From: an uncultured Actinomycetes bacterium
GTDB lineage: Bacteria > Actinomycetota > UBA4738 > HRBIN12
Direction of reading: 5' to 3'
Length of the DNA: 35,913 bases
Assembly (NCBI GenBank): GCA_964509215.1
Contig: CAZDXK010000001.1
Coordinates: forward strand, 1-35,913
The notes beneath the pieces are model-generated. The model had not been told where the DNA came from and did not search any database. It worked only from the letters and a program-made list of their open reading frames with translations. Positions 2,434 to 32,184 of this stretch are shown here, one piece after another (positions within the stretch are counted from its first letter, which is position 1; each line of letters opens with the position of its first letter). A program made the position numbers and the translations under genes.

Positions 2434-2442
2434 TTTCCGGCC

Positions 2443-7766: not shown

Positions 7767-7791
7767 CCCCTCCCTCGGGTTGCGCAGCGGG

Positions 7792-9381: not shown

Positions 9382-10441
9382 GGATCTCCTCGACCGGCAC
9401 GTAGTCCACGTCGTAGCCGAACGCGCGCGGGCCCGCGAGGTCCAGCCCGCGCACCGTCCGCCAGATCGGATCGCAGGGGAACGCGATCACGTGGACGCGT
9501 TGCCCGTACTTCAGCCGCTCGGTGGAGATCGCCTCGGCGCTCTCGGAATCCAGCACCGTGATGATGTCCGGCACGGTCGCGAGCAGCCGGCTGTCCTCGA
9601 GCGCGACGAGGTTCTCGTTCTGGATCTCGAGGCGAAGCGTGCGGCCGGCGTGTTCGCCGAGCCCCCCGATCGTGGCGGAGCCGCGGACGAACCCGGCGGT
9701 GGTGCGCCGCTCCACGTCGACGACCTTGCCGTTGATCAGCACCGCAGCGCCCAACTCCTCGGTGAGCGCGGTGACCGGGTCGTGTTCCGCTTCGAGCACC
9801 ACCGAGCCGATCCGGATGGCGAGGGAGAGGGACCGCCGGACCGTGGCCGTCTTCGCCTGAGCCACGGTGAGCTGGTACTCCGACGAGGAGGCCATGCCGC
9901 CGAACTCCACCGCCGCCGCTCGCTCCATGCGCTCCATCCACCCGCCGTCGATCGCGCGGAACACCGTGAGGTTTCCGCGCTCGTCGGTCATCACCGCCGG
10001 GTTCGGTGAGATCCCGGCCACCTCCATCGTGACCTGCGGCACTTCGGGAAAGGCGCGTCCCATCCCGTCGGCGTCGACCACTGGGACGCCGGCGTGGGCC
10101 GCCCACACGACAGGGATCAACCCGTTCGACCCTCCGATCTCCGCGGCGAAGAACGCCACCACCGGACAGCCCCAGAGTCGCTCGACCTCCTCGCGGAGGC
10201 GAACGCCCTCCCGTCCGTTCTCGATCTTCTCGATCGAGACGGTGGGCGCTCCGATGCCGCCGCACGGCATGAGGAGCGCGTCGTCGGGCAGGTCGTCGAG
10301 GTCCACCACGGGCACCGGCCCGTACTCCTCCACAGCCTGAAGCGCCATGAGCAGCCCGTAGTGGGTGTCGCCTCCTCCTCCGGCGCCGAGGATCGCGCAC
10401 CCCCTCGCGAGGGCCGGGAGGTTCGACGAGTCAAGGCGCAC
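9368..10441 (-). CDS. DUF917-family protein
   Basis: ARGCAILGAGGGGD...MPCGGIGAP...AAEIGGSNG are hallmarks of DUF917 (PF06032) as I recall it. Start placed at GTG 10441 (GAGG 6 nt upstream; gives ~357 aa, typical size). The alternative ATG 10513 would overlap hyuB-like by 83 nt. Confidence 0.8.
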   Translation of the reverse strand: MRLDSSNLPALARGCAILGAGGGGDTHYGLLMALQAVEEYGPVPVVDLDDLPDDALLMPCGGIGAPTVSIEKIENGREGVRLREEVERLWGCPVVAFFAAEIGGSNGLIPVVWAAHAGVPVVDADGMGRAFPEVPQVTMEVAGISPNPAVMTDERGNLTVFRAIDGGWMERMERAAAVEFGGMASSSEYQLTVAQAKTATVRRSLSLAIRIGSVVLEAEHDPVTALTEELGAAVLINGKVVDVERRTTAGFVRGSATIGGLGEHAGRTLRLEIQNENLVALEDSRLLATVPDIITVLDSESAEAISTERLKYGQRVHVIAFPCDPIWRTVRGLDLAGPRAFGYDVDYVPVEEIHGLG

Positions 10442-12089
10442 CGTAGACCTCGCGGGCCTCGCGCTCGGTGATGATCCCGTTGACGAGGTCTTCTGCAACG
10501 AGCTCCCGTTCACGCTCCCTCGGATCCCCGTGGCCGCCCCCGGTGCCCGTCACGAGCCGCACCAGGTCGCCGGTCCGAAGCGGCAACCTCGCGGCCTTCC
10601 CGAACCGACGCGGCGGCGAACCGTCGGCCGGCACGACCTCCACGTAGTTCACGGATCCTTCGCCGCCGCCGTCAACGCCCCAGGGTGGGAACCGATGGCG
10701 GCCGAACCCAACGGTGAGGCTGCCGTCGGTGAGGAGCCGGTACTCGCGGACCAGCCCCCGGCCGCCACGCCGGCGCCCGGCCCCGGCTCCCTCCACGATG
10801 TCGAGCCCGAATCGCTCCACGCGGATGCCGTAGCGCTGCTCGCAGACCTCTGCCGGGATCACATATGTCTCGCCGTCACCGACCGAGACGAGCCCGTGCT
10901 CTCCGTCCTTGAGGGCACTCGCGCCCCAGCCGCCAGCCTGCGGCTCGACGAGCAGCGTCGGCTCGCCCATGTCGGGATGCGTGCAGGCAACGGATGTCGC
11001 GCACACCGAGAGGAAGCTCCCGGCCGTGAGGACCTCCGGAAGCGCGGGCGCGAGCGCCTTCCACACGAGATCGGTGGCCGCCTCAGTGGCCTCGAAGTAG
11101 AGGGCGACAGGAGCCGGCCGCTCCGCCGTGAGCACCGTGCCCGGCGGGCAGACGATCTTGAACGGGCGGAACCATGCGTCGCTCGCGGCCTCGGTGGGAT
11201 CGGTGATCGCCTTGAAGACCGTGCGGACTCCCGATACCAGCCCACTCCGTGTGCAGTTCACGGGCCCCTTCACCTGGGGGCTCGAGCCGGTGAAGTCGGC
11301 CACGACCCCGTCCTCGGAGATCTCGACGCGCACCCGGATCGGGATCGGTGTCGTGTCGAGACCGTCATCGTCGAGAAAGTCCTCGGCCTCCCAGACTCCG
11401 CGCGGTAGGCGGACGACCGCGGCGCGAGCCAGCTCCTCGCTCCGCCGGTGCGCCTCGGCCATCGCCTCGCGGATCGCTTCGATCCCGTGGCGGTCGCACA
11501 GTTCGAAGAAGCGACGCTCCGCGACCTCGAGGCACGCGGCGAACGCGTGGAGGTCGCCGAGTGTCTCGTCGGGGAGCCGGCAGTTCGCGGCGACGATGGC
11601 CGCGATGTCGCGAACGAGTTCGCCGCGGCGGTGGGTCTTCACGAAGGGGAGCTGCAGGCCTTCCTGATAGATCTCGGTCGAGTCGGCCGTCCAAGAGCCC
11701 GGATCCTTGCCCCCCACCTCCGGCCAGTGGCCCTTCGCGCCGGCGAACGCGGCGAGTTCCCCATCCACGAAGATCGGCCGAACCATCGCGACGTCGGAGA
11801 GGTGTCCGCCGCCGCCCGAGTAGGGATCGTTCGTCGCAACAACGTCGCCCGGCTCGAGGTCGGGGACCTTCACCATCGTGTCGCGCGCTACCTCGCCCAG
11901 CGGCCCGAGGAACCCGGCGATCCCGTTGCCTTGCGACACGAGCTCGCCGTCCGCGTCGGTCAGTCCGACGGCGAAGTCGAGCACCTCGTAGATCACGGGG
12001 CTCTGCGAAGTCCGCTGCAGCGACACGAACATCTCGTCGGTGACGGCCGAGAAGGCCTCGCGAAGGACGTCCATCGTGAATCGGTCCAT
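10431..12089 (-). CDS. hydantoinase B / oxoprolinase family protein (HyuB-like)
   Basis: Start at ATG 12089 (MDRFTMDVLREAFSAVTDEMFVSLQRTSQSPVIYEVLDF, canonical Hydantoinase_B N-terminus). SD GAGGAGG lies upstream. TGATG overlap with the HyuA-like stop. The longer track ORF is an Arg-rich upstream extension. Confidence 0.9.
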   Translation of the reverse strand: MDRFTMDVLREAFSAVTDEMFVSLQRTSQSPVIYEVLDFAVGLTDADGELVSQGNGIAGFLGPLGEVARDTMVKVPDLEPGDVVATNDPYSGGGGHLSDVAMVRPIFVDGELAAFAGAKGHWPEVGGKDPGSWTADSTEIYQEGLQLPFVKTHRRGELVRDIAAIVAANCRLPDETLGDLHAFAACLEVAERRFFELCDRHGIEAIREAMAEAHRRSEELARAAVVRLPRGVWEAEDFLDDDGLDTTPIPIRVRVEISEDGVVADFTGSSPQVKGPVNCTRSGLVSGVRTVFKAITDPTEAASDAWFRPFKIVCPPGTVLTAERPAPVALYFEATEAATDLVWKALAPALPEVLTAGSFLSVCATSVACTHPDMGEPTLLVEPQAGGWGASALKDGEHGLVSVGDGETYVIPAEVCEQRYGIRVERFGLDIVEGAGAGRRRGGRGLVREYRLLTDGSLTVGFGRHRFPPWGVDGGGEGSVNYVEVVPADGSPPRRFGKAARLPLRTGDLVRLVTGTGGGHGDPRERERELVAEDLVNGIITEREAREVYGAP

Positions 12090-14143
12090 CACGAAGCCTC
12101 CTCGATGACCAGGTTCCCCAGGTCGTCTACCTCGACGGTCTGTCCCGGAAGCACGAGCGTCGTCGCCGCAGGTTCCTCGACGACACACGGACCGTCGAGC
12201 CTCGTGGCCGTATCGAGCGCGCTGCGCTCCACCACCTCCGCTCTTCGGACGCCCCCGTGCTGGTCGAGATCGACGTCGCGTGGTCGGAGCGTGGGGGGCG
12301 CACCGGATCGGTGCGTCGTCCACGACAGGCGCTCTGCCGGTGCCGACACGCTCACACGAATGGCCACGATCTCCACCGGCGACGGCAAGCTGAACGCGTA
12401 CGCCTCTTCGGAGGCTCGGTCGAAGTCACTCCGCAACATGTCGAGCAGCGAGGCGTCCACCGCTCCCTCGCGAAGCGGCACCTCCAGCGTGTGCTCCTGC
12501 CCGACGTAGCGAAGGTGTGCGAACCGCTGGACATGTCGCGAGCCCGCCTCGTCCTCGATCTCTGCCGCCGCCTCACGCTCCAGCAGATCGAACAGCGGAG
12601 CGAGCGTGGCGGGGCTGAGTGCACCGACGTGGGTCCGGATGGCGTCGGCACCGAAGTCTCCGAGCAGCATGCCCAGCGCCGAGAAGTGCCCGGGCGCGGG
12701 CGGGATCACCGTTCGACGGATGCCGAGCTCTCGGGCGAGCAGCGAGGCGTGGAGCGGGCCGGCGCCGCCGTAGGCCACGAACGTGAAGTCCCGGGGGTCG
12801 AGGCCGCGACGGACGGTGACCAGCCGAAGCGCGTGCGCCATCTGCGCGACCGCGTATCGCAGAACCCCTCGAGCCGCCTCAGAACTATCGACACCGAGTT
12901 CCCCCCCGAGCTGCCGGAGCGCCTTGGACGCCGCCTCCATGTCGAGCTGCATCGCTCCACCTAAGAAGTACTCGGGGTCGAGGCGCCCGGCCACGAGGTT
13001 CGCGTCGGTAACGGTGGGCTCCGTCCCGCCACGGCCGTAACAAGCCGGACCGGGTTCGGCGCCTGAGCTTGTGGGTCCGACGTGGAGCCCGCCCGCGGCG
13101 TCGATCCATGCGATCGAACCACCGCCGGCGCCGATCTCCATCACCTCTACCACCGGCACCTGGACGGGGTACCCGGCGAAGGTCGGCGTACGTGCGATGT
13201 GGTGAGACGTGTCGATCCTCACTCGGCCGCCGCGCACCGCCGACGTCTTCGCGGTCGTGCCGCCGATGTCAAGCGACAGCACGTCGGATGTGCCGAGTCG
13301 GCGCCCCAGCTCCGCGGCCGCCGTCACGCCGGCGACGGGCCCGGACTCGAGGAGCGAGATCGGCGAGGCGAGCGCACGCTCGAACGACGAGACACCGCCG
13401 CTCGAACGCATGGCGTACAAGGGACCGATCAGGCCCGCTTGCCGAAGACGGGCGGTGAGCCCACCGAGGTAGTTGGCGACCACGGGCTTCACGTATGCGG
13501 CGAGGACGGCGGTGCTGCTGCGCTCGTACTCGCGCCACTGCGAGCTCACATGGTGAGAAGCGACGACCTCGACCTCCGGGAGGAGTTTCCCGATCAACTC
13601 CGCGGCTCGCCGTTCGTGGTCGGGGTTCGTCCACGCATGGAGGAAGCACACCGCGACCGCTTCGACTCCCGCATCGCGGAGGGCAGGAGCGAGCGCCTCG
13701 ACCTCGTCCTCGTTGAGAGGCACCAGCACCTCACCTCGATGCGTGATCCGTTCGCTTACCTCGAAGCGAAGACGACGCGGGACGAACGGGCGAGGCTTCG
13801 CGTACGAAAGGTTGTACAGGTCGGGCCGATTGGCCCGACCGATCTCGAGCACGTCGCGAAAGCCCAGGGTCGTGACGAGCGCTGTGAGCGCGCCCTTGCG
13901 CTCGGTGATCGCGTTGATGACGGCGGTGGTGCCGTGGACGAACCCGCCGACCCAGGCTGGATCGACGCCCGAATGTTTAATCGCCTCGATCACCCCTTCG
14001 TCGAGCCGGCCCGAGGTGGTCGGAACTTTCGCCAGCACGAGGCGGCCTGTGTCCCCATCGACGCCGGCGAGATCGGTGAACGTGCCGCCGATATCGACCG
14101 CGAGGCGCTGTCCGGATCTCGCGGGAGCGGTGGGCACCGACAC
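12089..14143 (-). CDS. hydantoinase A / oxoprolinase family protein (HyuA-like)
   Basis: 684 aa. LAVDIGGTFTDL and LSLDIGGTTAK motifs, length typical of Hydant_A_N + Hydantoinase_A proteins. GTG start at 14143. Confidence 0.9.
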   Translation of the reverse strand: MSVPTAPARSGQRLAVDIGGTFTDLAGVDGDTGRLVLAKVPTTSGRLDEGVIEAIKHSGVDPAWVGGFVHGTTAVINAITERKGALTALVTTLGFRDVLEIGRANRPDLYNLSYAKPRPFVPRRLRFEVSERITHRGEVLVPLNEDEVEALAPALRDAGVEAVAVCFLHAWTNPDHERRAAELIGKLLPEVEVVASHHVSSQWREYERSSTAVLAAYVKPVVANYLGGLTARLRQAGLIGPLYAMRSSGGVSSFERALASPISLLESGPVAGVTAAAELGRRLGTSDVLSLDIGGTTAKTSAVRGGRVRIDTSHHIARTPTFAGYPVQVPVVEVMEIGAGGGSIAWIDAAGGLHVGPTSSGAEPGPACYGRGGTEPTVTDANLVAGRLDPEYFLGGAMQLDMEAASKALRQLGGELGVDSSEAARGVLRYAVAQMAHALRLVTVRRGLDPRDFTFVAYGGAGPLHASLLARELGIRRTVIPPAPGHFSALGMLLGDFGADAIRTHVGALSPATLAPLFDLLEREAAAEIEDEAGSRHVQRFAHLRYVGQEHTLEVPLREGAVDASLLDMLRSDFDRASEEAYAFSLPSPVEIVAIRVSVSAPAERLSWTTHRSGAPPTLRPRDVDLDQHGGVRRAEVVERSALDTATRLDGPCVVEEPAATTLVLPGQTVEVDDLGNLVIEEAS

Positions 14144-14275
14144 GGCGTACTTATATCGCCCCTGAAGCGTCTCGGGCCACTCGAGGGGGATGCATGCCCG
14201 GAATCCCCTAGGGCGCAGAAGGCCAATGTACCGAAAAGGTGCTCTGGCCGAGAAGCGAGCGTCGCCTACTCTTCT

Positions 14276-14308
14276 GTCGCCGTCATCCTTCGGGATGACG
14301 GCGGCGAC
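14276..14308 (-). terminator. stem-loop downstream of the DUF1059-like gene (candidate tail-less intrinsic terminator or RNA-processing site)
   Basis: GTCGCCGTCATCC-TTCG-GGATGACGGCGGCGAC: 11 perfect bp closing a 4-nt loop, extendable with a 3-nt bulge. About 20 nt after the stop at 14325. No U-tract. Confidence 0.35.
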
Positions 14309-14324
14309 CTACCACTATTCGGCG

Positions 14325-14477
14325 CTACTCCTCTTTCGTGGTGGCCATGACCGCCTCGAAGTCGAGGTCCTCGCCCTGGTGGTGCTCCGCGACATGCTGC
14401 TCCGCTTTCGTCCTCAGCTCCTCCATCGTTTCGCCTCGTACGGTCATCCCGTCGGCGCAGTCGATCCGGTAGCCCAC
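14325..14477 (-). CDS. small DUF1059-like protein (50 aa)
   Basis: GTG at 14477 is preceded by GAAGGAGG with a 5-nt spacer. Product VGYRIDCADGMTVRGETMEELRTKAEQHVAEHHQGEDLDFEAV... resembles the DUF1059 small metal-binding protein pattern (C.d.G....get.eEl...a..H...H). The upstream part of track ORF 14325..14714 has no such support. Confidence 0.5.
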   Translation of the reverse strand: MGYRIDCADGMTVRGETMEELRTKAEQHVAEHHQGEDLDFEAVMATTKEE

Positions 14478-15039
14478 GTTCGCCTCCTTCGTCGCTCCGA
14501 CGACGAGCGTACCCCTCACAGCTACGTCTCGCAGACGCCCCGCCAGGGCTGACTCGGCTCGTCGGTCCGGCCAGCTTCGCGGTGCTCCTGGGGAATCGCA
14601 ATGATGCGTTCGCATCAGCTCCCCGACCCAGGAAAACGCTCCGGTGCGCGCCAGTGCGACGACGTCACTCCAGGGCGAGAGGGCCCACGATTTCATGCGA
14701 CTGTCCCAGGCCATTCACATCATGCATGCTCTCGGAGGACGAGGGACCGGGAAGAGGTGAAGAGCAACGATGTACATCGACTCCGATTGCACCGGTGCCA
14801 TGAAGTACGTCCGTGTGACGGACCCGACCGACAAGCGAACCTGGGAGGTTTGGTGCGAGCCTGGTAACGCCAGCTGGCCCTCGCAATCCGAGAGTCCGGG
14901 GATAAGAGATGGGTCGTTCAGAGCCCCGATGGCGCTAAGGAACCGATCGACATGGTCGGCTTGACGAAAAGAAGTGCTCTTGGGCAGGCTGGCCGTACTG
15001 CTTGGCGGCGAAGACGCTGCACATGAGGTTCTCGAGCTC

Positions 15040-15457
15040 TTCGAACCCCTACGACTTGATAGCGAGGGCTGCATCAGTCCCGACGCTACGACCAAGTCCC
15101 TGCCGCTGAGGGCGCGGATCGGAACCTCCAACCTCACCGACCTCGAGCACCGACTCCGCGCCGGAGATGCTCGCCGTGGGCCGGGAGCGCGCAGCCGACG
15201 CCGGCCTCGCCAACGTCGAGTTCGTTGCCCGCGACGCCGAGGAGCTCGAGTTCGACAGCCAGAGCTTCGACGCGGGGCTCAGCCGCGCCACCTCAATGTT
15301 CCTGCCGGACGTCGCAGGCGCGTTGAGCCCAGCAGCAAGGGCAACTGCCCCAGGCGGGCTTTCATTCAGGAGTCAGGCTTCCGGCCGGTCGTGTTGCAGT
15401 TGCGGCGCGGCCCCTTCAGGAGAAGGATTCGAGCGTGGACTCCCAGATACCAACTAG
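15040..15457 (+). pseudogene. decayed class I SAM-dependent methyltransferase
   Basis: Pieces sit in different frames: RLDSEGC (about VLDxGCG), DSAPEMLAVGRERAADAGLANVEFVARDAEELEFDSQSFDAG...APGG, then FIQESGFRPV. At least two frameshifts and an internal deletion between the PGG and GF motifs. Confidence 0.5.
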
Positions 15458-15521
15458 CACGCATGGAGGTGTGGCCGAGCGACGCTGACGATCGACGGCG
15501 ACCCAAATTGCGGAGGTGGAG

Positions 15522-15908
15522 ATGGAGCCGGTCGGACAGCTCGGGTGGATCCAGGTTGACTGCCGAGATCCCGTAGCTCTTGCCACTTTCTGGGGGGTAG
15601 TGCTCGGCCTCCAGGTCGACGACGACTACCTCGGCGATCCACCTCACTACGTGGGGCTTGCGGCGACGAACCCCGACCACCCCCAGGTGAACTTCCAGCG
15701 GGTCGCGGAGCCGAAGACCATGAAGAGCCCACTCCATTTCGACCTACGCGTGGACGACGTCGACAAGGCGACGGCCCGGATCGAGGCGCTGGGCGGCCTG
15801 CGGCTACAGGCAGAAGACGTCCACGAGTACGGCTACAACTGGCGTGTGATGGCCGATCCTGAGGGCAACGAGTTCTGTCTGATCTACGAGATTGCCGCAG
15901 CGTCCTAG
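15522..15908 (+). CDS. VOC-family (glyoxalase/bleomycin-resistance-like) protein
   Basis: LGWIQVDCRDPVALATFWGVVLG...HFDLRVDDVDKATARIEALGG...VMADPEGNEFCL is typical of the Glyoxalase-like/VOC fold. ATG 15522 is preceded by GGAGG with a 5-nt spacer (the track ORF starts at GTG 15516). Confidence 0.8.
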   Translation: MEPVGQLGWIQVDCRDPVALATFWGVVLGLQVDDDYLGDPPHYVGLAATNPDHPQVNFQRVAEPKTMKSPLHFDLRVDDVDKATARIEALGGLRLQAEDVHEYGYNWRVMADPEGNEFCLIYEIAAAS

Positions 15909-15954
15909 CCGTCCCTCGATCTACGGGAGTCAATCTGCGCCTACAGCCGATCCT

Positions 15955-16002
15955 TGGTGGGCGCTAGAGGATTTGAAACTCTGACCTCTTCCGTGTCAGG
16001 GA
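15955..16002 (-). other. tRNA-Val(GAC) 3' fragment (nt 29-73 plus encoded CCA), att-like direct repeat, degenerate
   Basis: Minus-strand reading TCCCTGACACGGAAGAGGTCAGAGTTTCAAATCCTCTAGCGCCCACCA matches the tRNA-Val at the window end. The exceptions are G53->T (which breaks the T-stem) and the presence of CCA. No 5' half is present. Confidence 0.8.
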
Positions 16003-16063
16003 GATGGGCCGCAGGTGTCTGAGCTGCACCTTCCCAGGTGAGGGACGAAGTCGACCGTCACAC

Positions 16064-16117
16064 GAGTACCGGAGAGTACCGTTGGGTTCGGTCGGCTCCT
16101 TGACCAGGTGTTGACCA
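16064..16117. repeat. short tandem direct repeats next to the tRNA-Val fragment (GAGTACCG x2, period 10; TTGACCA x2, period 11)
   Basis: cacGAGTACCGgaGAGTACCGtt at 16064-16081 and TTGACCAggtgTTGACCA at 16100-16117, read directly. Function unknown (recombinase arm-type sites are a speculation). Confidence 0.4.
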
Positions 16118-16292
16118 AACCAAGCGACCCAACGCCATCCAACTAGCTGCTAGTTCGACCCTCAGAGATCACCGGGACTGGGTGGGGTGGGCCCCTCGGG
16201 CGTGGCCGTTTCGTGGGCACGGGCGATCGCCTCGTGTCGACTGGGGGGTCGTTGTGACAACTGTCCGGTCGACTCGACAACCCCGCGGCGAG

Positions 16293-17375
16293 CTAGATAC
16301 CGAGTAGACCGAGCCGCTGCGCGAGGGCCGCCGCCTCCGCCCGCCGCTCCGCCCCCAGCTTCGCCAAGATGTTCGAGACGTGGGTCCCTACGGTCTTCGG
16401 GCTGATGAAGAGCTGATCCGCGATCTGCTTGTTCGTGCGCCCGGTCGCGACAAGCTGCAGGACTTCCAGCTCGCGCGCTGACAGACCAAGCTCGTCCGGA
16501 CTCACGCGCCGCGAGCGGGTCTGCGGGCTCGGAGGCAGGGTGAGGAGGAACCTGCGTACCTCGTCCACGATCGCGTCCTGGTCGCCCACCCACATCAGGT
16601 GGTCCACTCCGGGGAGCTCGACGTAGCGAGCCCCCTTGATCCCCTCCGCCAACGCGCGTCCCTGATGCACCGGAACGACCAGATCGCCGGTCCGATGAAG
16701 TACCAGGGTCGGTACTTCGATCCTGGGCAGCACGTCACCCCAATCGATCTGGTACCCCAGCTGCATCAGCGCACGAGCCGACCCGGGGCTCAGTCCCGAC
16801 CGGGTGAGCCGCAGGTACGCGGCAGTCGTTCGCTCGTCGGCCAAGAGGTTCGGCGCCCAGAACGCCGCACCGACGCCTTCGGTGCCCCACTCGTTCTCGA
16901 TCCTGTCGAGCGCCTCCTCCTCCGTGTTGGCCAGTCGGGAGAGCATGCCGGTCTCGGGCTCCAGCTTCGGGAACGTTCCGTACAGGATGAGTGCCACCGA
17001 GCGCTCGGGGTACGTGGCGGCGAACAGGCCGCACATCGCGCCACCTCCGAGCGTGCCGAACAGCACCGCGCGCTCGGAGCCGGCGGCGTCCATGACGACG
17101 CGGATGTCGTCCATGCGGTCGGGAAGGCTGGGGAGCCGGTCGGGGTCGACTCGATCCGATAGGCCCGTCCCGCGCTTGTCGAACAGGATCAGGCGCGAGA
17201 AGGAAGCGAGCCGCTCCAGGAAGCGTGCGAGCGGCGGGACCTCCCATGCCAGGTCCAGATGCGTGACCCATCCCGGCGAGAGGATCAGATCGACGGATCC
17301 CTCGCCCAGCACCTGATACGCGATGTTGAGACCGCCGCTCTTTGCATACTTCGTCCGAGGCCTCACAAGCCACAC
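16293..17375 (-). CDS. alpha/beta-hydrolase-fold domain (nucleophile Ser absent) fused to a C-terminal LuxR/FixJ-type HTH
   Basis: 360 aa. N-terminus NIAYQVLGEG..DLILSPGW...FDKRGTGLSDR is alpha/beta-hydrolase-like. The nucleophile elbow reads G-T-L-G-G instead of G-x-S-x-G. C-terminus LSARELEVLQLVATGRTNKQIADQLFISPKTVGTHVSNILAKLG is a canonical LuxR HTH. GTG start at 17375 (uncertain). Confidence 0.85.
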   Translation of the reverse strand: MWLVRPRTKYAKSGGLNIAYQVLGEGSVDLILSPGWVTHLDLAWEVPPLARFLERLASFSRLILFDKRGTGLSDRVDPDRLPSLPDRMDDIRVVMDAAGSERAVLFGTLGGGAMCGLFAATYPERSVALILYGTFPKLEPETGMLSRLANTEEEALDRIENEWGTEGVGAAFWAPNLLADERTTAAYLRLTRSGLSPGSARALMQLGYQIDWGDVLPRIEVPTLVLHRTGDLVVPVHQGRALAEGIKGARYVELPGVDHLMWVGDQDAIVDEVRRFLLTLPPSPQTRSRRVSPDELGLSARELEVLQLVATGRTNKQIADQLFISPKTVGTHVSNILAKLGAERRAEAAALAQRLGLLGI

Positions 17376-17423
17376 CCTATGTCGGGTGCGAGGGACCGTA
17401 CTCCGTCATGTTCCCTATGCCGG
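17376..17423. promoter_or_regulatory. divergent intergenic region with two copies of CCTATG(T/C)CGG (candidate operator); a third copy lies at 18114-18123
   Basis: CCTATGTCGG at 17376-17385, CCTATGCCGG at 17414-17423, CCTATGTCGG at 18114-18123. Also a TGCGG-TG-CCGCA inverted repeat near 17443-17454. Function is inferred only. Confidence 0.25.
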
Positions 17424-17522
17424 AATGCGGCGTCTTCCCGATTGCGGTGCCGCAGAGCCGGACCCACGATGGCACGTGACGCGTCGTCGTGGATCGAGAC
17501 CTATCGACAAGGAGGGATGGAT

Positions 17523-17750
17523 ATGCCGCTCATCAACGTGAAAGTGATCGAAGGCGTCTTCTCGGACGAGCAGAAGGGGGCGATCGTCCGAGGACTGACC
17601 GACGCCATGGTCGTGATCGAGGGCGAGAACATGCGGCCGGTCACGTGGTGCGTGATCGATGAGGTGCGCAGCGGTGACTGGGGCATCGGCGGCGATGCGC
17701 TGACGACCGACGCAGTGAAGAAGCTGGCAGCCGGCGTGCCGGTCGGCTGA
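17523..17750 (+). CDS. 4-oxalocrotonate tautomerase-family protein (75 aa)
   Basis: MPLINVKVIEGVFSDEQKGAIVRGLTDAMV...: catalytic Pro-1 context and beta-alpha-beta length typical of the tautomerase superfamily. AAGGAGGG lies upstream of ATG 17523. The longer track ORF (from 17259) is an unsupported extension. Confidence 0.85.
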   Translation: MPLINVKVIEGVFSDEQKGAIVRGLTDAMVVIEGENMRPVTWCVIDEVRSGDWGIGGDALTTDAVKKLAAGVPVG

Positions 17751-17855
17751 TCGCTCGATACCCGTCCGAGCAAGCCTGGGCATCCCTCCCCGCGAGACCC
17801 GGAGCCCGGATCGAGGCACGAAGCTTCATCGAATCACCGGGTGCCACCACGGAAG

Positions 17856-17887
17856 GAAGCCCGGAGCCCCTTGTGGCTCCGGGCTTC
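17856..17887 (+). terminator. strong GC hairpin between the tautomerase gene and the tRNA-Val fragment
   Basis: GAAGCCCGGAGCC-CCTTGT-GGCTCCGGGCTTC: 13 perfect bp with a 6-nt loop. No clear U-tract on either strand, so it could act in either direction. Confidence 0.4.
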
Positions 17888-17999
17888 TCATGCAGGGCTG
17901 ACGTTCGTCGGATTCGACAGCACGCGGCAGGATACATCCATGAGTCGCGTTTCTCGGCGCCTACTCACGTCCTTCATGACAGACCAACGGTTCTGCTTG

Positions 18000-18045
18000 T
18001 GGGCGCTAGAGGATTTGAACCTCTGACCTCTTCCGTGTCAGGGAA
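18000..18045 (-). other. tRNA-Val(GAC) 3' fragment (nt 28-73, no CCA); att-like repeat forming the right end of copy A
   Basis: 46 nt identical to 35860-35905. Beyond 18045 the sequence (caacggacc...) departs from the tRNA body (gcgctctc... at 35906). Confidence 0.85.
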
Positions 18046-18246
18046 CAACGGACCCCCTCTCTGAGCAGGCCGAAAACAGCATATCCCCTGCTCAGACCCC
18101 ATATCTAATAGAGCCTATGTCGGTGTAGTTCGATGTACGGACGAACAGTCCGTGGCAGAATCCAGGCAGAAAGCTAGTCGAAAAGACAGAATGCGGCTCC
18201 GTCAAGAACGCGGGCCGACCGCCGACGGAGATCAGGAGGTCGCTAC

Positions 18247-18411
18247 ATGTCGATTCAACTGTCCGAAGAAGCCTTCACGCTGCCGTACTTCCTGCGGGAG
18301 AGACTGGACCGCATGCATGAGCTGATCGACAGCGGTCCAGCTCGGGCGAAAGGGGAGCTTGCGGAAGCGAATGCTGAACTGGCCGAGTGGATCGGACCCG
18401 GCGTGCTCTAA
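18247..18411 (+). CDS. small hypothetical protein (54 aa) in the inter-copy spacer
   Basis: Below the ORF-track cutoff. ATG 18247 is preceded by AGGAGG with a 7-nt spacer. Product MSIQLSEEAFTLPYFLRERLDRMHELIDSGPARAKGELAEANAELAEWIGPGVL has balanced, helix-like composition. No family recognised. Confidence 0.4.
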   Translation: MSIQLSEEAFTLPYFLRERLDRMHELIDSGPARAKGELAEANAELAEWIGPGVL

Positions 18412-18500
18412 CGAGCTTGCGTGTGAGTGCTCACGCCGCCCGATGTTGTTCGCTGAACCAGCGGTCTTGCAACCGGGCTCGGTCGCGCTTTGCCTGCTTG

Positions 18501-18546
18501 TGGACCCACGGGGATTCGAACCCGGACCTATTGGCTGCCAGCCAAC
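18501..18546 (-). other. tRNA-Ala(GGC)-like 3' fragment (anticodon arm to discriminator), no 5' half
   Basis: Minus-strand reading GTTGG-CTGGCAG-CCAAT-AGGT-CCGGG-TTCGAAT-CCCCG-TGGGTCC-A: anticodon loop with GGC, a TTCGAAT T-loop, U70 compatible with Ala identity, and one T-stem mismatch. The upstream sequence has no D-arm or acceptor complement. Confidence 0.5.
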
Positions 18547-18592
18547 GCCGTGGGAGCACGCGTTCATCGTTTGCGCTGCTCAACGCCTCCCA

Positions 18593-18641
18593 TGTCCCTC
18601 CGTGTCCCTCAGCGCACGTTACTCCGTTCGTTACTCCGTTG
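18593..18641. repeat. short tandem direct repeats beside the tRNA-Ala-like fragment (TGTCCCTC x2, period 10; GTTACTCCGTT x2, period 12)
   Basis: caTGTCCCTCcgTGTCCCTCag at 18593-18610 and GTTACTCCGTTcGTTACTCCGTTg at 18618-18641, read directly. Function unknown. Confidence 0.45.
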
Positions 18642-19138
18642 GCAGTTCCCCACCGCAGGTCACGTCCCGTCAAGTGGTGTGTACGAGTCGCCGCGTCATC
18701 CTTGGTCCTCAGCTCGCCGCGACGCGCTCGGCGATCTCTTGTTGATCTACAGCAACCAGTCCTCGTCCGCGAGAAGCTCCATTCTGACCTCGCGTGGCTG
18801 GCCGGTTTGACGGTCCAGCGCGAGACTGCGGTGGCAGGGTACCGGTCGAATGCCCACGCTCAAGCAGTGCTCCGAGGTCAGATCTTCTCCTTCCTCGACG
18901 ACTTACGGAGTGGTGGTGCTAAGCCGGTTGAAAGGCTAACGGTAGCCGGTCGAAGGTCAGCACCTAGGGTCGGTTGAGCTTCCGGTTGCTGACTGGCTCG
19001 CTCTGGGGGCTGCGCCTCCAGAGCTACTGGGCTTTCAAGGTCAATGGGACTCAATTGACCGCTGAGCCAACGACCTACCCCCAGCCGACGACGATGCAGG
19101 AATCGCCCCGGGGCTAAGGTCGCGGTCAGCGCCCCGTC

Positions 19139-19717
19139 CTAGGCCCGGACGAATCGGGCGGAACCAAGAACGGGCGCGATGAGCGTCTCGTTCCCGTCTG
19201 TCCACTTGACCCGGTAGCTCACGCTCAAGTCGCCGTGGATGACTTGAAGAATTTCCCCCTCGCGGGGTTGGGAGCCAACCTTGGGGGATTCGATGACGAT
19301 GAGGTCGCCTCGCTTGGCTGGCATCGTCGTCGCGAGTGTGCGAGTTGCCGGCGTCGCGGTCTGCCCAGATGCCCTTGCGCCTCGGAGTGCAGGTCGTTTG
19401 GCCTGAGACGCGATTGGAGCTGAGCGACTCGCCGTGGCCCTCCTCGCTGTCGCCTTCTTGGCGATCGTCTTCTTCGCCATGACCTTCTTCGCGCTCTTCT
19501 TCCTGCCGGTGACCTTCCTCGCGACGGGCTTCTTGGCAATCGTCTTCTTGGCAGTCGTCTTGGCCGTGGTCTTCCTCGCAGTGGTCTTCCTCGGATTTGT
19601 CTTGCCAGGGGTCCTCCTCGCCGCGACCTTCCGGGCCGTCGACTTCTTCGCGCTGACCTTCCTTGCCGTCATCTTCTTGGTCGTTGTCTTCTTGGCAGTG
19701 GTCTTGTTCGCTGGCAC
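19139..19717 (-). CDS. Lys/Thr/Ala-rich basic tail + DUF1918-like domain protein (copy B)
   Basis: Translation identical to 1279..1857. Confidence 0.75.
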   Translation of the reverse strand: MPANKTTAKKTTTKKMTARKVSAKKSTARKVAARRTPGKTNPRKTTARKTTAKTTAKKTIAKKPVARKVTGRKKSAKKVMAKKTIAKKATARRATASRSAPIASQAKRPALRGARASGQTATPATRTLATTMPAKRGDLIVIESPKVGSQPREGEILQVIHGDLSVSYRVKWTDGNETLIAPVLGSARFVRA

Positions 19718-19900
19718 GGTTCCCCTCCTGGCGCTAACAGCCGCATCGAGAGACTACTCCCCTTGGTACTCCTCGAAGCATGCTCGGGGCGGTCGGGAGT
19801 AGGTGAGTCCTGTCCTGAACGCCTCGTTCCGAGCGGTGCCATGCTGCCCGTCGAACTGAGCCAGGTAGGATCAGGCCGAGAAGGCGACAAGAGGCTCTTA

Positions 19901-20293
19901 TTAAGATCCTTCACGGTGTGAAACCAGCACCTAGGACGGATCGACCTGCGCACTAACCCTAGCCCCGATGTTCACGGCCAGGCCGCCGATCTTGCCGTTA
20001 TGGTCGTGACTTCCCCGGTGTGGAGACCTGTTCGGTGACGGGAAGGCTCGACATCTTCTGATCCACCCGTCTGACGAGCTCGCGGAGATCGTCGGCGACG
20101 TAGGTGGGACGCACCTCCGACGCCGCGAGCTCCTCCTTGGTCGACACCCCGTCAGCACGAGCAGGGAGTCCCAGCCGTCGTGGGAGTGACTTCGTATGCG
20201 TCCCACTGAGCCGGGCTGCGCTTGGCGCCGGTACGCTGGCGTCCGACACCATCCCTGGAAGTTGGTGAAGATTACCCAACTGCGCGACCTCAA
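19901..20293 (-). pseudogene. decayed class III nucleotidyl cyclase domain (copy B)
   Basis: Identical to 2041..2433. Confidence 0.45.
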
Positions 20294-20302
20294 TTTCCGG
20301 CC

Positions 20303-21268
20303 TCAAACGCCCAGCACATCCTCCGCACGGTGGCAGGACACGGTTCGGCCCGGTTCGACTTCCCGCAGCTGCGGCACCTCGACCCGACAACGGTCGACCG
20401 CGAGCTTGCACCGCGGATGGAAGGGGCACCCGAGTGGCGGGTCGGCTGGATCGGGGACGTTGCCCGGCAGCACCACGCGCGACCGGCGTGCCGCCAGATC
20501 GATCTCTGGTACTGCCGACCTGAGCGCCACCGTGTACGGGTGCGCCGGCCGGGCCAGCACTTCCTCCGTCGGCCCCTGCTCCACGATCTTCCCGAGGTAT
20601 AGGACCGCGGTCTCCTCGCAGAGCTGCTCCACAACCGCAAGGTTGTGGGACACGAGCACGTAGGCGAGCCCGCGTTCCTTGCGCAGCTTCCCGATCAGCT
20701 CGAGGATCCGCGCCTGCACGGTCACGTCGAGCGCGCTCGTCGGCTCGTCCAGCACCAGCACCCGCGGCTCCACCGATAGGGCGCGGGCGATCGCGACTCG
20801 CTGGCGCTGCCCGCCTGATAGCTGATGTGGGTACCGCCCCGCGAAACCATCCGCCAGCCCCACCTCGGCCAACAGCGACTCAACCCTTCCCGGGATGTCC
20901 GCCTTGGGCACGATCCCGTGCGCGCGCAGCGGCTCTGCCACCGCCGCGCCGATCCGCACACGTGGGTCCAGGCTCGTCGTCGGATCCTGGAACACGATCT
21001 GCACGGTTCGCCGGTACGCGCGCAGCTCACCGCCGCGCAGGCGCAGCACGTCCTGCCCCCCCAGCCGGATCGAGCCTCCCTCGGCATGAACCAGCCGCAG
21101 GAGCGCGCGAGCGATGGTCGTCTTGCCCGACCCACTCTCCCCCACGAGCCCGAGCCCGAACGGGCCAATCGGCAACGAGAACGACACCCCGTCCACGGCG
21201 CGCACAAGCCCGAACCGGACATGAAGGTCCTCGACCTCCAGGAGCGGGGCGCCGGCGCTATCGGTCAT
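20303..21268 (-). CDS. ABC transporter ATP-binding protein (OppF/DppF-like), copy B
   Basis: Translation identical to 2443..3408. Confidence 0.9.
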   Translation of the reverse strand: MTDSAGAPLLEVEDLHVRFGLVRAVDGVSFSLPIGPFGLGLVGESGSGKTTIARALLRLVHAEGGSIRLGGQDVLRLRGGELRAYRRTVQIVFQDPTTSLDPRVRIGAAVAEPLRAHGIVPKADIPGRVESLLAEVGLADGFAGRYPHQLSGGQRQRVAIARALSVEPRVLVLDEPTSALDVTVQARILELIGKLRKERGLAYVLVSHNLAVVEQLCEETAVLYLGKIVEQGPTEEVLARPAHPYTVALRSAVPEIDLAARRSRVVLPGNVPDPADPPLGCPFHPRCKLAVDRCRVEVPQLREVEPGRTVSCHRAEDVLGV

Positions 21269-22074
21269 CGAGGGCCCGGCCCCCCGATCCTGGGCACCGC
21301 CGCCACGAGCTCCCTCGTGTAGACGTGCCGCGGTTCGCCGAGCACCCGGGGCGTCGATCCTTCCTCGACGATCCGCCCCGCCCGCATCACCGCAAGGCGG
21401 TCGCAGAGCTCCGAGATCACCGCGAGGTCGTGGGTGATGAACAGCACGCTCATCCCCCGCTCGTCGCGGAGCCGGCGGAGCAGCTCCAGGATCTCGGCCT
21501 GCACCGTGACGTCGAGCGCGCTCGTGGGCTCGTCGGCGAGGAGCACCTCCGACCGGAGCGCGACCGCCATCGCGATGACCACACGCTGCGCCTGCCCACC
21601 GGAGAGCTGGTGGGGGTACCGCACCAGCAGCTCCGGTGAGAGCAGCACCGAGCGGAGCGCTTCGGCGGAGCGCTCGCGCGCCTGTTCACGGGAGGCGCCG
21701 TGCACCCGCAGCGTCCGCTCGAACAGCTCGCCCACACGGGTGAGCGGGTCGAGCGAGGCCACCGGGCTCTGGAAGATCGCCGCAATGCGGCTGCCACGGA
21801 TCTGGCGCAACCGATGCTCCGGGGCGCCGACGAGCTCCTCCCCGTCGAGCCGGATGCTCCCCTCGACCGTCGCCCCGAGCGTTCCGGCCAGCCCCAGCAC
21901 GGCCAGCGACGTCATCGATTTCCCCGAGCCGCTCTCGCCGGCGAGTCCCAAGATCTCGCCGGCTCTCAGGTCGAGCCGCTCCAGCTCCACCACGCGTCGC
22001 TCGCCGAACCGGATCCGCAGGTCGCGCACTCCGAGCCGCGGTTCGCGTGCGGCTGTTGGCGTCGCGTCGCTCAT
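21265..22074 (-). CDS. ABC transporter ATP-binding protein (OppD/DppD-like), copy B
   Basis: Identical to 3405..4214. Confidence 0.9.
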   Translation of the reverse strand: MSDATPTAAREPRLGVRDLRIRFGERRVVELERLDLRAGEILGLAGESGSGKSMTSLAVLGLAGTLGATVEGSIRLDGEELVGAPEHRLRQIRGSRIAAIFQSPVASLDPLTRVGELFERTLRVHGASREQARERSAEALRSVLLSPELLVRYPHQLSGGQAQRVVIAMAVALRSEVLLADEPTSALDVTVQAEILELLRRLRDERGMSVLFITHDLAVISELCDRLAVMRAGRIVEEGSTPRVLGEPRHVYTRELVAAVPRIGGPGPR

Positions 22075-23000
22075 CGCGACAGTACCCGCCTCGGGTCCAG
22101 GATCTCCCGGAGCCCGTCGCCGAGCAGGTTGAACGCCACCGCGGTGAGGAAGATCGCCGCGCCCGGGAACGTCCCTAACCACCAGTGGGTGGTGAAGAAT
22201 GACAGACCCTGACTCACCATGAGGCCCCAGTCCGGGGTGGGATCCTGCGCACCGAGCCCCAGGAACGACAACGCGGAAGCCGTCAGGATCACGCCACCCA
22301 CGTCCGACGAAACCTGGACGATCACCGGGGTGATGGAGTTCGGCAGGATGTGCCGCAAGAGGATCCGGCGGTGCGGGATGCCCAGGGCCCGAGCGCTTTC
22401 CACGAACGGGCGCCCAGCAACCGAAGCGGCCTGCCCGCGAACGAGCCGCGTGTACCAGGGCCACCAGGTGATCGCGATGGCAATCACCGTCGTGCCGAGC
22501 GAGGGCGTGAGGACCGCCGCGAACGCGAGCGCCAGAAGCAAGGCCGGAAAAGCCAGGAACACGTCGGTCACTCGCATGATGGTCTCGTCCACGATCCCAC
22601 CGAAGTAGCCGGCTACGGTCCCGAGCGGCACGCCGACCACGGTCGAGATCACCAGCACCAGCACCGCGATCGTCGGTGAGATGCGAGCGCCGTAGATCAC
22701 GCGCGACAGGACGTCCCTCCCCACCTGATCCGTGCCGAACGGATGCTGGAGCGAGGGCGAGAGCAGGATCTGGCTCGGGTGTGTGGCGCTTCCCGCGTCC
22801 TCCGGGAACGGCGCGAGCAATGGCGCGAGCAACGCCACCAGGACGATCAGCAGGGATAGCCCGGCGCCCCACGCGAGGAGCGGGTTCCGCCGGAATCCCG
22901 CGACGACGTCCCGCCACCGTCCGGGCGGTCTCGGCTCCGCACCTCGTTCCTCGATAACGGCGACCGCGCCGTCGTGGGCTCGTACCGGTTCGTCGGCCAT
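22071..23000 (-). CDS. ABC transporter permease (DppC-like), copy B
   Basis: Identical to 4211..5140. Confidence 0.85.
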   Translation of the reverse strand: MADEPVRAHDGAVAVIEERGAEPRPPGRWRDVVAGFRRNPLLAWGAGLSLLIVLVALLAPLLAPFPEDAGSATHPSQILLSPSLQHPFGTDQVGRDVLSRVIYGARISPTIAVLVLVISTVVGVPLGTVAGYFGGIVDETIMRVTDVFLAFPALLLALAFAAVLTPSLGTTVIAIAITWWPWYTRLVRGQAASVAGRPFVESARALGIPHRRILLRHILPNSITPVIVQVSSDVGGVILTASALSFLGLGAQDPTPDWGLMVSQGLSFFTTHWWLGTFPGAAIFLTAVAFNLLGDGLREILDPRRVLSR

Positions 23001-24016
23001 CAGCTCAGCCGGATCCTCGGGTCGATGAGAGCCTGGATCACGTCGACCAGCGTGTTCCCCACGACGTAGACGATTGCCACGAAGAGCGTCACGCCGACGA
23101 TCGCCGGGGTATCGAGTGCCGACACGGCGTCGGCCGCGTAGCTTCCGAGGCCCGGTCGGTTGAAGATCGCCTCGACCAGGAAGGCGTTCACGATCGAGTA
23201 CGCGAAGACGAGTGCGAGGATCGCCAACACCGGGTTCCACACATGTCGGAGGGCGAATCGCCCGAACACGCTCCGCTCGGAGAATCCCAGCGCGCGAACC
23301 ATGCGGATGTGGTCCTCCCCGACCGTGTCGAGGACGGAGGCCCGGACCATCCTCGTGATCACACCGAAGGGATAGGCCGCGATCACGACGGCCGGGAGGA
23401 CGAGGTGCTGGAGGGTGCTCCAGAGCACCGGCCAGTTCCCGGTGATCAGCGAGTCGATCACCGGCATGTTGGTGATGCTCCGGAGCGGACTCGTGTAGTC
23501 GAGGTCCGGGGCGTAGGTCCCCGCCACCGGCAACACCCGGAGCCACTGGAAGAACACGAGCTGGAGGATCAGCGCCAACCAGAACGAGGGCATGGACACT
23601 CCGAACACCGCGCCCAGGCGCGCGAGGAAGTCGGGGGCACGTCCCTTCCACCGCGCCGACACCAGCCCCAGTGGGACACCGACCACCAGGGCAAGGATCA
23701 ATGCGGCGGCCACCAGCTCGATCGTCGCCGGCGCCCTCCGGGCGATGTCGGTGAGCACGGGGCGACGCGTCCGGAGCGACACCCCCCAGTCGCCTGAGGC
23801 GACCCCTCCGAGGTAGGCCACGATCTGAACGGGCATCGGTCGGTCGAGCCCGAGCTCATCGCGCGCTTGCTTCACCTGCTCGGGGCGGGCGCGCGGGCCC
23901 GCCCATGTGGCCGCCGGGTCGCCCGGGACCACGCGGGCGATCACGAACGTCAGGACCACCACCCCCACCACCACGAGCGCGGCGAGAGCGACGCGACGGA
24001 CGAGGTAGCGGCTCAC
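23000..24016 (-). CDS. ABC transporter permease (DppB-like), copy B
   Basis: Identical to 5140..6156. Confidence 0.9.
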   Translation of the reverse strand: MSRYLVRRVALAALVVVGVVVLTFVIARVVPGDPAATWAGPRARPEQVKQARDELGLDRPMPVQIVAYLGGVASGDWGVSLRTRRPVLTDIARRAPATIELVAAALILALVVGVPLGLVSARWKGRAPDFLARLGAVFGVSMPSFWLALILQLVFFQWLRVLPVAGTYAPDLDYTSPLRSITNMPVIDSLITGNWPVLWSTLQHLVLPAVVIAAYPFGVITRMVRASVLDTVGEDHIRMVRALGFSERSVFGRFALRHVWNPVLAILALVFAYSIVNAFLVEAIFNRPGLGSYAADAVSALDTPAIVGVTLFVAIVYVVGNTLVDVIQALIDPRIRLS

Positions 24017-25626: not shown

Positions 25627-25651
25627 CCCCTCCCTCGGGTTGCGCAGCGGG

Positions 25652-32168: not shown

Positions 32169-32184
32169 CTACCACTATTCGGCG

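Follow-up and report, generated by a model that had tools for sequence, protein, structure and literature searches.

Repeats, spacer and gene content of the contig

The window analyzed here is a whole contig of 35,913 nucleotides from an uncultured actinobacterium, and its right end falls inside a tRNA-Val gene, at nt 20 of the tRNA. It contains two copies of a long direct repeat (R1 and R2), a spacer between them (M), a unique segment on the left (L) and 3' fragments of tRNA-Val(GAC) that we designated A and B. The features are as follows:

1..1182: segment L, unique to the left end; belongs to a small integrative element of the int-xis-rep type and lacks int and xis
116..1072, - strand: rep-like gene in L, 279 aa as called by the gene caller
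1183..18045: repeat copy R1, 16,863 bp
1279..14143 and again 19139-32003, - strand: operon block, cargo or native, syntenic in L001-L008
15516..15908 and again 33376-33768, + strand: VOC/glyoxalase-like gene, directly outside fragment A
15955..16002, - strand: fragment A, copy 1, tRNA-Val(GAC) nt 29-73 plus CCA, with G53T
16003..17998: islet, copy 1, 1,996 bp, two genes, recombinase absent
16293..17375, - strand: fusion of an alpha/beta-hydrolase and a GerE/LuxR HTH, 360-aa ORF (357 aa as called in Logan contigs)
17523..17750, + strand: gene of the 4-oxalocrotonate-tautomerase family (4-OT-type), 75 aa
18000..18045, - strand: fragment B, copy 1, tRNA-Val nt 28-73, then CA and not CCA; inner side joined to M
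18046..19043: spacer M, 998 bp, GC 0.59-0.62, the sole unique DNA between R1 and R2
18247..18411, + strand: 54-aa ORF in M, with an AGGAGG ribosome-binding site
18501..18551, - strand: tRNA-Ala(GGC) 3' fragment in M, anticodon stem to 3' end, 51 nt
19044..35905: repeat copy R2, 16,862 bp, equal to R1 from 19088 on
33815..33862, - strand: fragment A, copy 2, tRNA-Val(GAC) nt 29-73 plus CCA, with G53T
35860..35913, - strand: tRNA-Val(GAC) gene, nt 20-73 only; its 3' part is fragment B, copy 2 (35860-35905)

The two repeat copies were 100% identical over 16,818 nt (1228-18045 in R1 and 19088-35905 in R2). Similarity between them began at 1183 and 19044, and the first 45 nt contained one indel and one substitution. 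The other end of the direct repeat coincided exactly with the inner edge of B (18045/35905), where the junction of B with M (B|M) and the continuation of B into the tRNA gene (B|tRNA) part. The left flanks of the copies also differed, R1 being preceded by L and R2 by M. A perfect tandem with a period of 17,860 was ruled out since positions 1-1182 were unrelated to 18046-19043, and a circular contig was ruled out since the first 55 nt differed from the last 55 nt. Both junctions of M occurred in independent short-read data: Logan unitig L167 was 100% identical to 17999-19019 and covered B|M, and unitig L168 was 100% identical to 19011-20212 and crossed the M|R2 junction. These unitigs were built with k=31, which is too short to span the 47-nt core described below.

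The operon block within the repeat encodes a histone-like/DUF1918 protein, an Opp/Dpp-type ABC transporter, hydantoinase/oxoprolinase A and B, and S-Me-THD. The preliminary description of this DNA had given the islet a regulator-like gene and a tautomerase gene and no recombinase, and domain searches and tblastn bore this out; a hairpin lies downstream of the tautomerase gene at 17856-17887. None of the major ORFs of the contig had a Phage_integrase or recombinase domain, and tblastn of the contig with two integrases from related elements gave 0 matches for integrase remnants. The islet interior (16201-17933, ~1.7 kb) was 97% identical to Logan metagenome contigs that carried both islet genes and were too short to reveal a tRNA-Val site. 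In these contigs the left flank was unrelated, the right side was the end of a DDE transposase and the tRNA-Val fragment was absent, so that the islet genes do not stand in one fixed arrangement; a fixed arrangement is what the preliminary description had said would speak against integration. The tautomerase gene was not found beside the LuxR-hydrolase gene in more distant homologues. The best relative among genome contigs had 76% amino-acid identity and the best among metagenome contigs 73%, with tRNA-Val absent nearby in both; as these sets contained no closer relative, an empty site could not be found. Scans of viral contigs with the core and with the L protein gave no matches, and BLAST of M and the B junction against plasmids and phages returned nothing useful.

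Besides its orphan ORF and the piece of tRNA-Ala, spacer M has a hairpin at 18060-18096. No homologue of the 54-aa ORF was found outside its own cluster, and Pfam, NCBIfam and PHROGs gave no label for the ORFs of L and M. The tRNA-Ala(GGC) fragment was 90% identical over 51 nt to the tRNA-Ala of contig L169, in which a displaced tRNA-Ala fragment was not found. From its extent, the fragment in M is read as a scar of att type that involves a tRNA species other than tRNA-Val. The L protein had homologues with a weak RepB_primase_C match, which were located downstream of a tyrosine integrase or of an HTH_17 excisionase, and one int-xis-rep element bearing such a homologue lay directly downstream of a tRNA-Ala(GGC) gene, suggesting that tRNA-Ala may be a target of L-type elements. 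In the window, int and xis were missing from their expected place upstream of the rep-like gene, where R1 starts (1183). We also considered whether the L|R1 junction interrupts a terminator hairpin, which would have been evidence that L is the derived junction. This idea was rejected as the fold was no better than that of shuffles (z = -0.36) and a terminator-like site was absent.

tRNA-Val fragments and the B|M junction

A 46-nt core occurred on the + strand at four sites, exactly at 17999-18044 and 35859-35904 and with one mismatch each at 15957-16002 and 33817-33862, while 100 dinucleotide shuffles gave an expectation of 0 sites. Aligned on the - strand, the fragments agreed base for base with the coordinates and tRNA numbering given in the preliminary description. 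B matched the tRNA fully from T28 to A73 and continued with CAAG; A matched from T29, except for G53->T, and continued with CCAAG. The earlier statement that A has CCA and a T-stem-breaking change and that the gene lacks CCA was thus correct. The G53->T change turns AGAGG into AGAGT and breaks the G53-C61 pair. The alignment of A with B spanned 50 nt and contained a single mismatch and a single 1-nt indel (CCA vs CA), and both fragments had the orientation of the gene (- strand), with core matches of 45/46 for A and 46/46 for B. Outside the tRNA-derived block their flanks had nothing in common, with no shared arm sequences. Identity with the tRNA begins at nt 28 in B and at nt 29 in A and continues beyond nt 73, which corresponds to the Islander anticodon class 'A'.

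Four tRNA-Val 3' ends had been counted in the window. The four sequences are present, but they do not stand for four events: the 16.86-kb repeat contains A, the islet and B, so that its duplication makes two sites appear as four. Likewise, A and B do bracket the islet as had been proposed, but B (18000-18045) is at the same time the junction of the repeat with M at tRNA nt 28. The relevant unit is a nested composite of 17,860 bp, running from M to B, and reaches beyond the 2-kb islet alone. The genuine tRNA-Val gene is the truncated copy at the right contig end. Its location had been given correctly as 35860-35905, but the contig breaks off within the gene and leaves nt 20-73, which the Rfam tRNA model, applied in 5'-truncated mode, scored at 40.5 bits. 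This copy extends 8 nt beyond B, and these nucleotides, GAGAGCGC, fit the D-stem and the C27-G43 pair, and the contig end lies 55 nt past the left edge of the core.

ARAGORN had been suggested as a means of confirming an intact tRNA-Val; its single call in the window was 17999-18070, which is the hybrid of B and M. This hybrid had two C-C mismatches in the acceptor stem and scored 18.2 bits vs the Rfam gathering score of 29, and its minimum-free-energy fold lacked a cloverleaf and was no better than that of shuffles. A live tRNA gene at 17999-18070 was rejected on these grounds, and the B|M junction is an attP-like or internal tandem att site and not a gene. Pieces of tRNA genes are known to be miscalled as tRNAs (van der Gulik et al. 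2023, PMC9897764), and the call at 17999-18070 is a direct instance of the cases treated there, with no differences from them.

Probable attachment-site scars at tRNA-Val and competing explanations

We consider it probable that tRNA-Val is a hotspot of integration here, where CIME-like remnants without an integrase have accreted and a 17,860-bp unit closes on itself at the core. Tyrosine-integrase elements would repeatedly have used the 3' end of tRNA-Val(GAC) for attachment, with the crossover centred on the anticodon loop, and integrase-less remnants would have been left as a nested set. Downstream of the gene the order would be tRNA-Val (its 3' part being B), the 2-kb islet, A, ~14.8 kb with the conserved hydantoinase/peptide-ABC operon, the 1-kb M with its tRNA-Ala(GGC) att scar, and B again. 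Since the M-to-B unit joins itself head-to-tail exactly at the core, it may have recombined as a unit at B, with an integrase supplied in trans, and it would now be a tandem duplication or else a circle that coexists with an integrated copy. Lying between A and B, the islet is best read as a CIME-like cassette, as it has att sites and lacks recombination genes. Fragment A is consistent with an older, displaced and decaying 3' end (an attR-type scar), as the preliminary description had supposed, since this fits its CCA and G53T.

Several observations favour reading the fragments as att scars. The core repeats are far beyond chance, have the orientation of the gene and start in the anticodon stem, and the long repeat ends exactly at core B. 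A second tDNA 3' fragment, also from the anticodon stem, lies in M. Homologues of the L protein occur in int-xis-rep elements, one of which follows tRNA-Ala(GGC). Finally, B|M and M|R2 were found at 100% in independent unitigs, and elsewhere the islet genes lie by a transposase end. The tyrosine-integrase footprint proposed earlier is supported by the same-orientation 3' fragments that start at nt 28/29 and adjoin the tRNA gene. Against this reading, an integrase, an attP-bearing element and an empty site were all not found in these searches, so that recombination at the cores is put forward from the anatomy of the locus. Further observations also count against it. L, and not M, precedes the left copy, so that a simple tandem dimer or a circle plus an integrated copy needs an extra event or a second strain. 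Moreover, other Actinomycetota carry the operon found between A and M as a conserved block of the chromosome, which fits a native flank as well as it fits island cargo.

There is slightly less than an even chance that the tandem arose in assembly, from a genome with a single R (L-R-tRNA) in which the assembler walked a loop from R through M to R that came from a variant, a strain or an excised 17.86-kb circle. The window is a complete contig that ends 8 nt past the core, and its last 55-mer begins with the leftmost base of the tRNA-derived repeat, as is typical where a second edge enters a vertex of a k=55 de Bruijn graph. R1 and R2 differ only within 45 nt adjoining the point of divergence between L and M, positions that would lie in separate graph edges, and the SRR6868923 unitig at the repeat start leads into M and not L, as if L and M were different variants. 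In addition, unitig breaks at 17999/18028 in two samples indicate that another left flank enters the core. If one graph edge was walked twice, the 100% identity of R1 and R2 is true by construction and only 8 nt of the islet flank are surely linked to M in single reads. On the other hand, the assembler and its k value are themselves deduced, and with k=55 exceeding the 47-nt core the link from the islet end through B to M would have to come from real reads. The reading of A and B as att scars stays even under such a loop, and only the tandem changes, to a circle or a variant.

An ordinary segmental tandem duplication, arising by homology or microhomology and ending near the tRNA by chance with the tRNA pieces having no role, appears improbable. 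Tandem duplications are common, and R has an operon of conserved, housekeeping type and lacks mobility genes. However, the right end of the repeat coincides with the tRNA identity limit (nt 28), within 1 nt of the limit of A (nt 29), the copies are not directly joined but parted by 998 bp of unrelated DNA with another tDNA scar, and the left flanks L and M are unlike. It seems more improbable still, to the point of being hardly credible, that A and B are decayed duplicate tRNA-Val genes of a former array. Such an origin could account for the D-arm motif GCTCAG, found 15-16 nt from the core in both non-tRNA flanks, and for the cloverleaf into which ARAGORN folded B|M. Yet identity falls from 45-46/46 to none right at nt 28/29 without graded decay, the tRNA-Ala fragment in M is likewise a 3' half only, and the low score and shuffle-like fold of B|M, together with the known tendency of fragments to yield false tRNA calls (PMC9897764), argue against former genes.

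Returning to the att-scar reading, we regard its furthest form as rather doubtful, namely that in an uncultured soil actinobacterium a 17.9-kb unit lacking its own recombinase, carrying a complete hydantoinase/oxoprolinase and peptide-ABC operon and a nested 2-kb att-flanked cassette and arranged as a head-to-tail dimer or circle at tRNA-Val, was moved or amplified purely in trans. If this were so, the unit would be a metabolic island mobilized by an integrase encoded elsewhere. Circularization or amplification of the 17.9-kb unit, if true, would amount to trans-mobilization of an ordinary catabolic operon, which would be useful and add no new principle. The locus also serves as a worked example of traps, in which an att-type tDNA was called as a tRNA, a repeat was counted as separate copies and an assembler loop may be involved.

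Comparison with known systems

The elements that carry the L-protein homologues have the order int - (xis) - rep-like, and we take them to be of the small actinomycete int-xis-rep type (AICE-like, pSAM2 type). In contrast to these, the window keeps the rep-like gene only, and the start of R1 replaces int/xis. SGI1 encodes the integrase that it uses, and its target is a protein-coding gene, at the end of which it inserts. The array seen here may be an assembly loop and the outer flank of its distal copy differs (L), unlike the SGI1 tandem arrays (PMC2297512), with which it shares head-to-tail island copies and an att junction between them.

Islander islands have a regenerated target and a displaced fragment, with an anticodon-centred class of attP (Hudson, Lau & Williams 2015, PMC4383910; Williams 2002). 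The present locus resembles them (PMC4383910) in having a putatively regenerated tRNA gene at one end and a displaced 3' fragment in the same orientation at the other, an identity block from the anticodon stem (attP class 'A') and more than one fragment at one tDNA. However, no interval here has an integrase gene, so that it would not pass the Islander filter, the contig breaks off within the tRNA gene, and the outer interval includes a copy of the inner interval.

Both CIMEs and their accretion at the 3' ends of tRNA genes have been described (Pavlovic 2004; Bellanger 2011; reviewed in PMC5704250). Compared with the CIMEs reviewed there, the origin from an ICE or IME is only putative here, no partner ICE/IME with a matching integrase was seen, the host is an uncultured actinobacterium and not a streptococcus, and mobilization would be deduced from one junction, the head-to-tail B|M. 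As in the reviewed cases, the islet adjoins a tRNA gene at its 3' end and stands in a row with further remnants, as part of a composite of the kind that can recombine at its outer sites. Att sites lie at both ends of the islet (A/B) and of the 17.86-kb unit (B/B), and genes for integration and transfer are absent. The structure is probably an ordinary kind of genomic-island remnant, and from an uncultured actinobacterium it adds one hotspot linked to a tRNA gene at which remnants without an integrase have accreted.

A 16.86-kb repeat and its tRNA-Val sites

Positions 1228-18045 were identical to 19088-35905 across 16,818 nt, forming a direct repeat (R, copies R1 and R2) whose similarity started at 1183/19044 with one indel and one substitution in the first 45 nt. 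A core search with a 46-nt tRNA-derived block identified four copies in the window, all on the plus strand, against a chance expectation of none. The preliminary description had reported four tRNA-Val(GAC) 3' ends; all four are present, but given the identical repeat they represent only two sites, A and B, each occurring twice. Its fragment coordinates and tRNA numbering were borne out by alignment of A and B to the tRNA.

Repeat copies, tRNA-Val cores and their flanks
1183-18045, direct repeat, copy R1
19044-35905, direct repeat, copy R2
15957-16002 and 33817-33862, plus strand, core in A, 46-nt block with one mismatch
17999-18044 and 35859-35904, plus strand, core in B, exact match to the 46-nt block
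16003-16035 and 18046-18075, core flanks bearing CTGAGC

On the minus strand, B corresponded to tRNA T28 to A73 followed by CAAG, and A to the tRNA from T29, with G53->T, followed by CCAAG. The G53->T change disrupts the conserved G53-C61 pair. Over a 50-nt alignment A and B differed by one substitution and one 1-nt indel (CCA to CA). The right end of the repeat coincided to the base with the inner limit of core B. Past ...CAGGGAA, the first copy ran CAACGG... into a unique 998-bp spacer (M, 18046-19043) and the second ran GCGCTCTC, which is tRNA nt 27-20. To the left of the first copy lay a unique segment (L, 1-1182) distinct from M, and the resulting layout, L - R1 - M - R2 - tRNA, excludes a perfect tandem. 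We noted CTGAGC (GCTCAG on the tRNA strand, a D-arm motif) in both non-tRNA flanks, 15-16 nt from the cores; either chance or a degenerate 5' tRNA half within attP arms could explain it.

Rfam identified one above-threshold tRNA in the window (35860-35913, 40.5 bits), 5'-truncated by the sequence end. The sole ARAGORN call was the hybrid of B and M at 17999-18070. Its acceptor stem contained two C-C mismatches and its D-arm was poor; it scored 18.2 bits in Rfam versus a gathering score of 29, and its fold was no better than that of shuffles. The score, the mismatches and the shuffle-like fold rule it out as a gene; mis-calling of att-type tDNA fragments as tRNA genes is a recognised problem (PMC9897764).

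Gene content of the repeat, the islet and the flanking segments

The genes of R encode a histone-like/DUF1918 protein, an Opp/Dpp-type ABC transporter, hydantoinase/oxoprolinase A and B, S-Me-THD and a second HydA-like protein, followed by several orphan ORFs and a VOC protein; after these come A, an islet of ~2 kb, and B.

Genes and other features of the window
116-1072, minus strand, rep-like protein (homologues at 35-64% identity)
1279-1857 and 19139-19717, minus strand, Lys/Ala/Thr-rich histone-H1/HC2-like N-terminus fused to a DUF1918 C-terminus
3405-5057, minus strand, 550-aa ORF, ABC ATPase domain at residues 315-466 only
16293-17375, minus strand, alpha/beta-hydrolase fused to a GerE/LuxR HTH domain, 360 aa
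17523-17750, plus strand, tautomerase, 75 aa
18060-18096, hairpin with a 10-bp stem, CTGAGCAGG...CCTGCTCAG
18501-18551, minus strand, tRNA-Ala(GGC) 3' fragment, anticodon stem to 3' end, 51 nt

Many Actinomycetota MAGs shared the HydA-to-ABC block in synteny at 52-77% amino-acid identity, in one case together with the DUF1918 gene, and synteny ended at HydA; no tRNA-Val lay near these syntenic loci. The N-terminal part of the histone-like gene contained DNA repeats at 15-nt spacing (1581-1861), and the gene is conserved beside the ABC operon in contig L008. The 550-aa ORF overlaps another long ORF (4211-5791) and may be a fused permease-ATPase or reflect a wrong start choice.

Neither an integrase domain nor a remnant of one was detected anywhere in the contig, and the islet, with its LuxR-hydrolase and tautomerase genes only, has no recombinase, as previously described. 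These two genes (window 16201-17933) occurred at 97% identity in Logan contigs from other runs, where the left flank of ~330 nt was unrelated to the window and, on the right, the C-terminus of a DDE transposase (rve_2) replaced the window's 65 nt and B. The differing flanks indicate that the arrangement is not fixed among close relatives, which speaks against the first refuting condition of the preliminary description, the same fragments in a fixed order in every relative. The transposase end could be a mere IS insertion. The tRNA-Val fragment was absent from these contigs, which are too short to reveal an empty site. An IS3/rve_2-type transposase end adjoined the region downstream of the tautomerase in L084 (1360-1436) and L086 (850-993), and these 97% relatives also had a ~45-nt insertion near window 17830-17840. 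More distant LuxR-hydrolase homologues (<=73%) had neither a tautomerase nor tRNA-Val adjoining.

M and L are mobile-element debris. M was low in GC (0.59-0.62) and held an orphan ORF of 54 aa preceded by a good ribosome-binding site. Its strong hairpin, at a distance of 15 nt from the core, was much more stable than shuffles (z = -3.7) and could act either as a terminator or as an arm-type site. Its tRNA-Ala(GGC) fragment, 90% identical to the tRNA-Ala of contig L169 and without similarity in the 5' half, represents an att-type scar, here from a second tRNA species.

Homologues of the rep-like protein of L gave weak RepB_primase_C matches, with no Pfam assignment above threshold, and were arranged in int-(xis)-rep order. 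In L169 (8086-10861) a tRNA-Ala(GGC) gene and a tyrosine integrase immediately preceded the rep-like gene. It lay downstream of an integrase in L172 (126-2750) and of an HTH_17 excisionase in L170 (2046-3374), so that among these homologues it always followed a tyrosine integrase or an HTH_17 excisionase. The family appears to represent uncharacterised small int-xis-rep elements; one of them carried McrBC cargo. L172 begins inside another tRNA (1-29, minus strand, 5' half GGGCGCTTAGCTCAGCGGAAGAGCG); this 5' half shares its acceptor stem with the window's tRNA-Val, and it directly precedes an int-xis-rep element.

The boundary between L and R1 is probably a truncating rearrangement junction, since the start of R1 occupies the expected int/xis position and the upstream reading frame is open up to the junction. 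Upstream of the rep-like gene (952-1190, minus strand), two frames each held part of a small protein (...GSVFHCARNVGWIVCVG and ...SRAVTRHKGAQRVWERLP), which suggests a frameshifted, 5'-truncated gene ending at this junction. The rep-like gene is on the strand of the tRNA-Ala fragment, which fits a model in which an int-xis-rep element would once have integrated at the Ala fragment of an M copy and a later deletion would have taken out attL, int, xis and 494 nt of M. A search of L169 revealed no displaced Ala fragment.

Assembly of the duplication

The window is a complete contig, since a database protein identical to the product of the L ORF belongs to a contig of exactly 35,913 nt. It ends 8 nt past core B, and the left edge of the tRNA-derived repeat is precisely where its final 55 nt start. 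This suggests a k=55 de Bruijn assembly that traversed R, a single edge, twice (L to R to M to R to the tRNA side), with a second downstream flank entering the same tRNA in the source sample. The 100% identity of R1 and R2 would then be true by construction, and the two differences beside L and M would sit in separate graph edges. Both junctions of M are real, since independent Logan unitigs from SRR6868923 reproduced 17999-19019 (B into M) and 19011-20212 (M into R2) at 100% identity; these unitigs have k=31, too short to bridge the 47-nt core. As k=55 exceeds this core, the link from the islet end through B to M should be backed by real reads, with guaranteed linkage of only 8 nt of left flank. 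Unitig breaks at 18028 in L085 and 17999 in L167 indicate a further left flank joining the core in both samples. One chromosomal copy, accompanied by a circle of 17,860 bp or by a co-existing variant, has in our judgement slightly less than an even chance; a real tandem in one genome is nearly as likely, and a chimeric junction is unlikely.

Probable integration at tRNA-Val

The standard tRNA-integration model is reportedly described in Williams 2002. Here the crossover made by a tyrosine integrase falls in the anticodon loop; the attP of the element provides a new 3' part for the tRNA, and the former one ends up at the element's far end (PMC5704250, PMC4383910). The anatomy of the A/B locus fits it. 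A, which has the native CCA and is bordered by the VOC side, would be an older chromosomal 3' end displaced by the islet element and mutated at G53 afterwards. B in the live gene would be attP-derived, and the first bases of M would be an arm of an element that underwent recombination at B. Since M adjoins the end of R precisely at nt 28, the M-to-B unit of 17,860 bp has probably recombined at the core with itself or a sister copy; as the unit has no integrase gene, the enzyme would have to be supplied in trans. The repeats, their limits, the junctions and the gene content are direct observations; how an integrase acted, in which direction and order the events ran, and any mobility today are inferences. 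The unit would thereby be like a cis-mobilisable element (CIME) in behaviour, keeping att sites with recombination genes absent, and the islet a nested CIME. The earlier reading as integration scars and a non-autonomous remnant is partly supported; it was incomplete in that the four ends amount to two sites in a 16.9-kb repeat, the larger unit is a composite, and the duplication may be an assembly loop. The structure is a fresh instance of a well-known kind.
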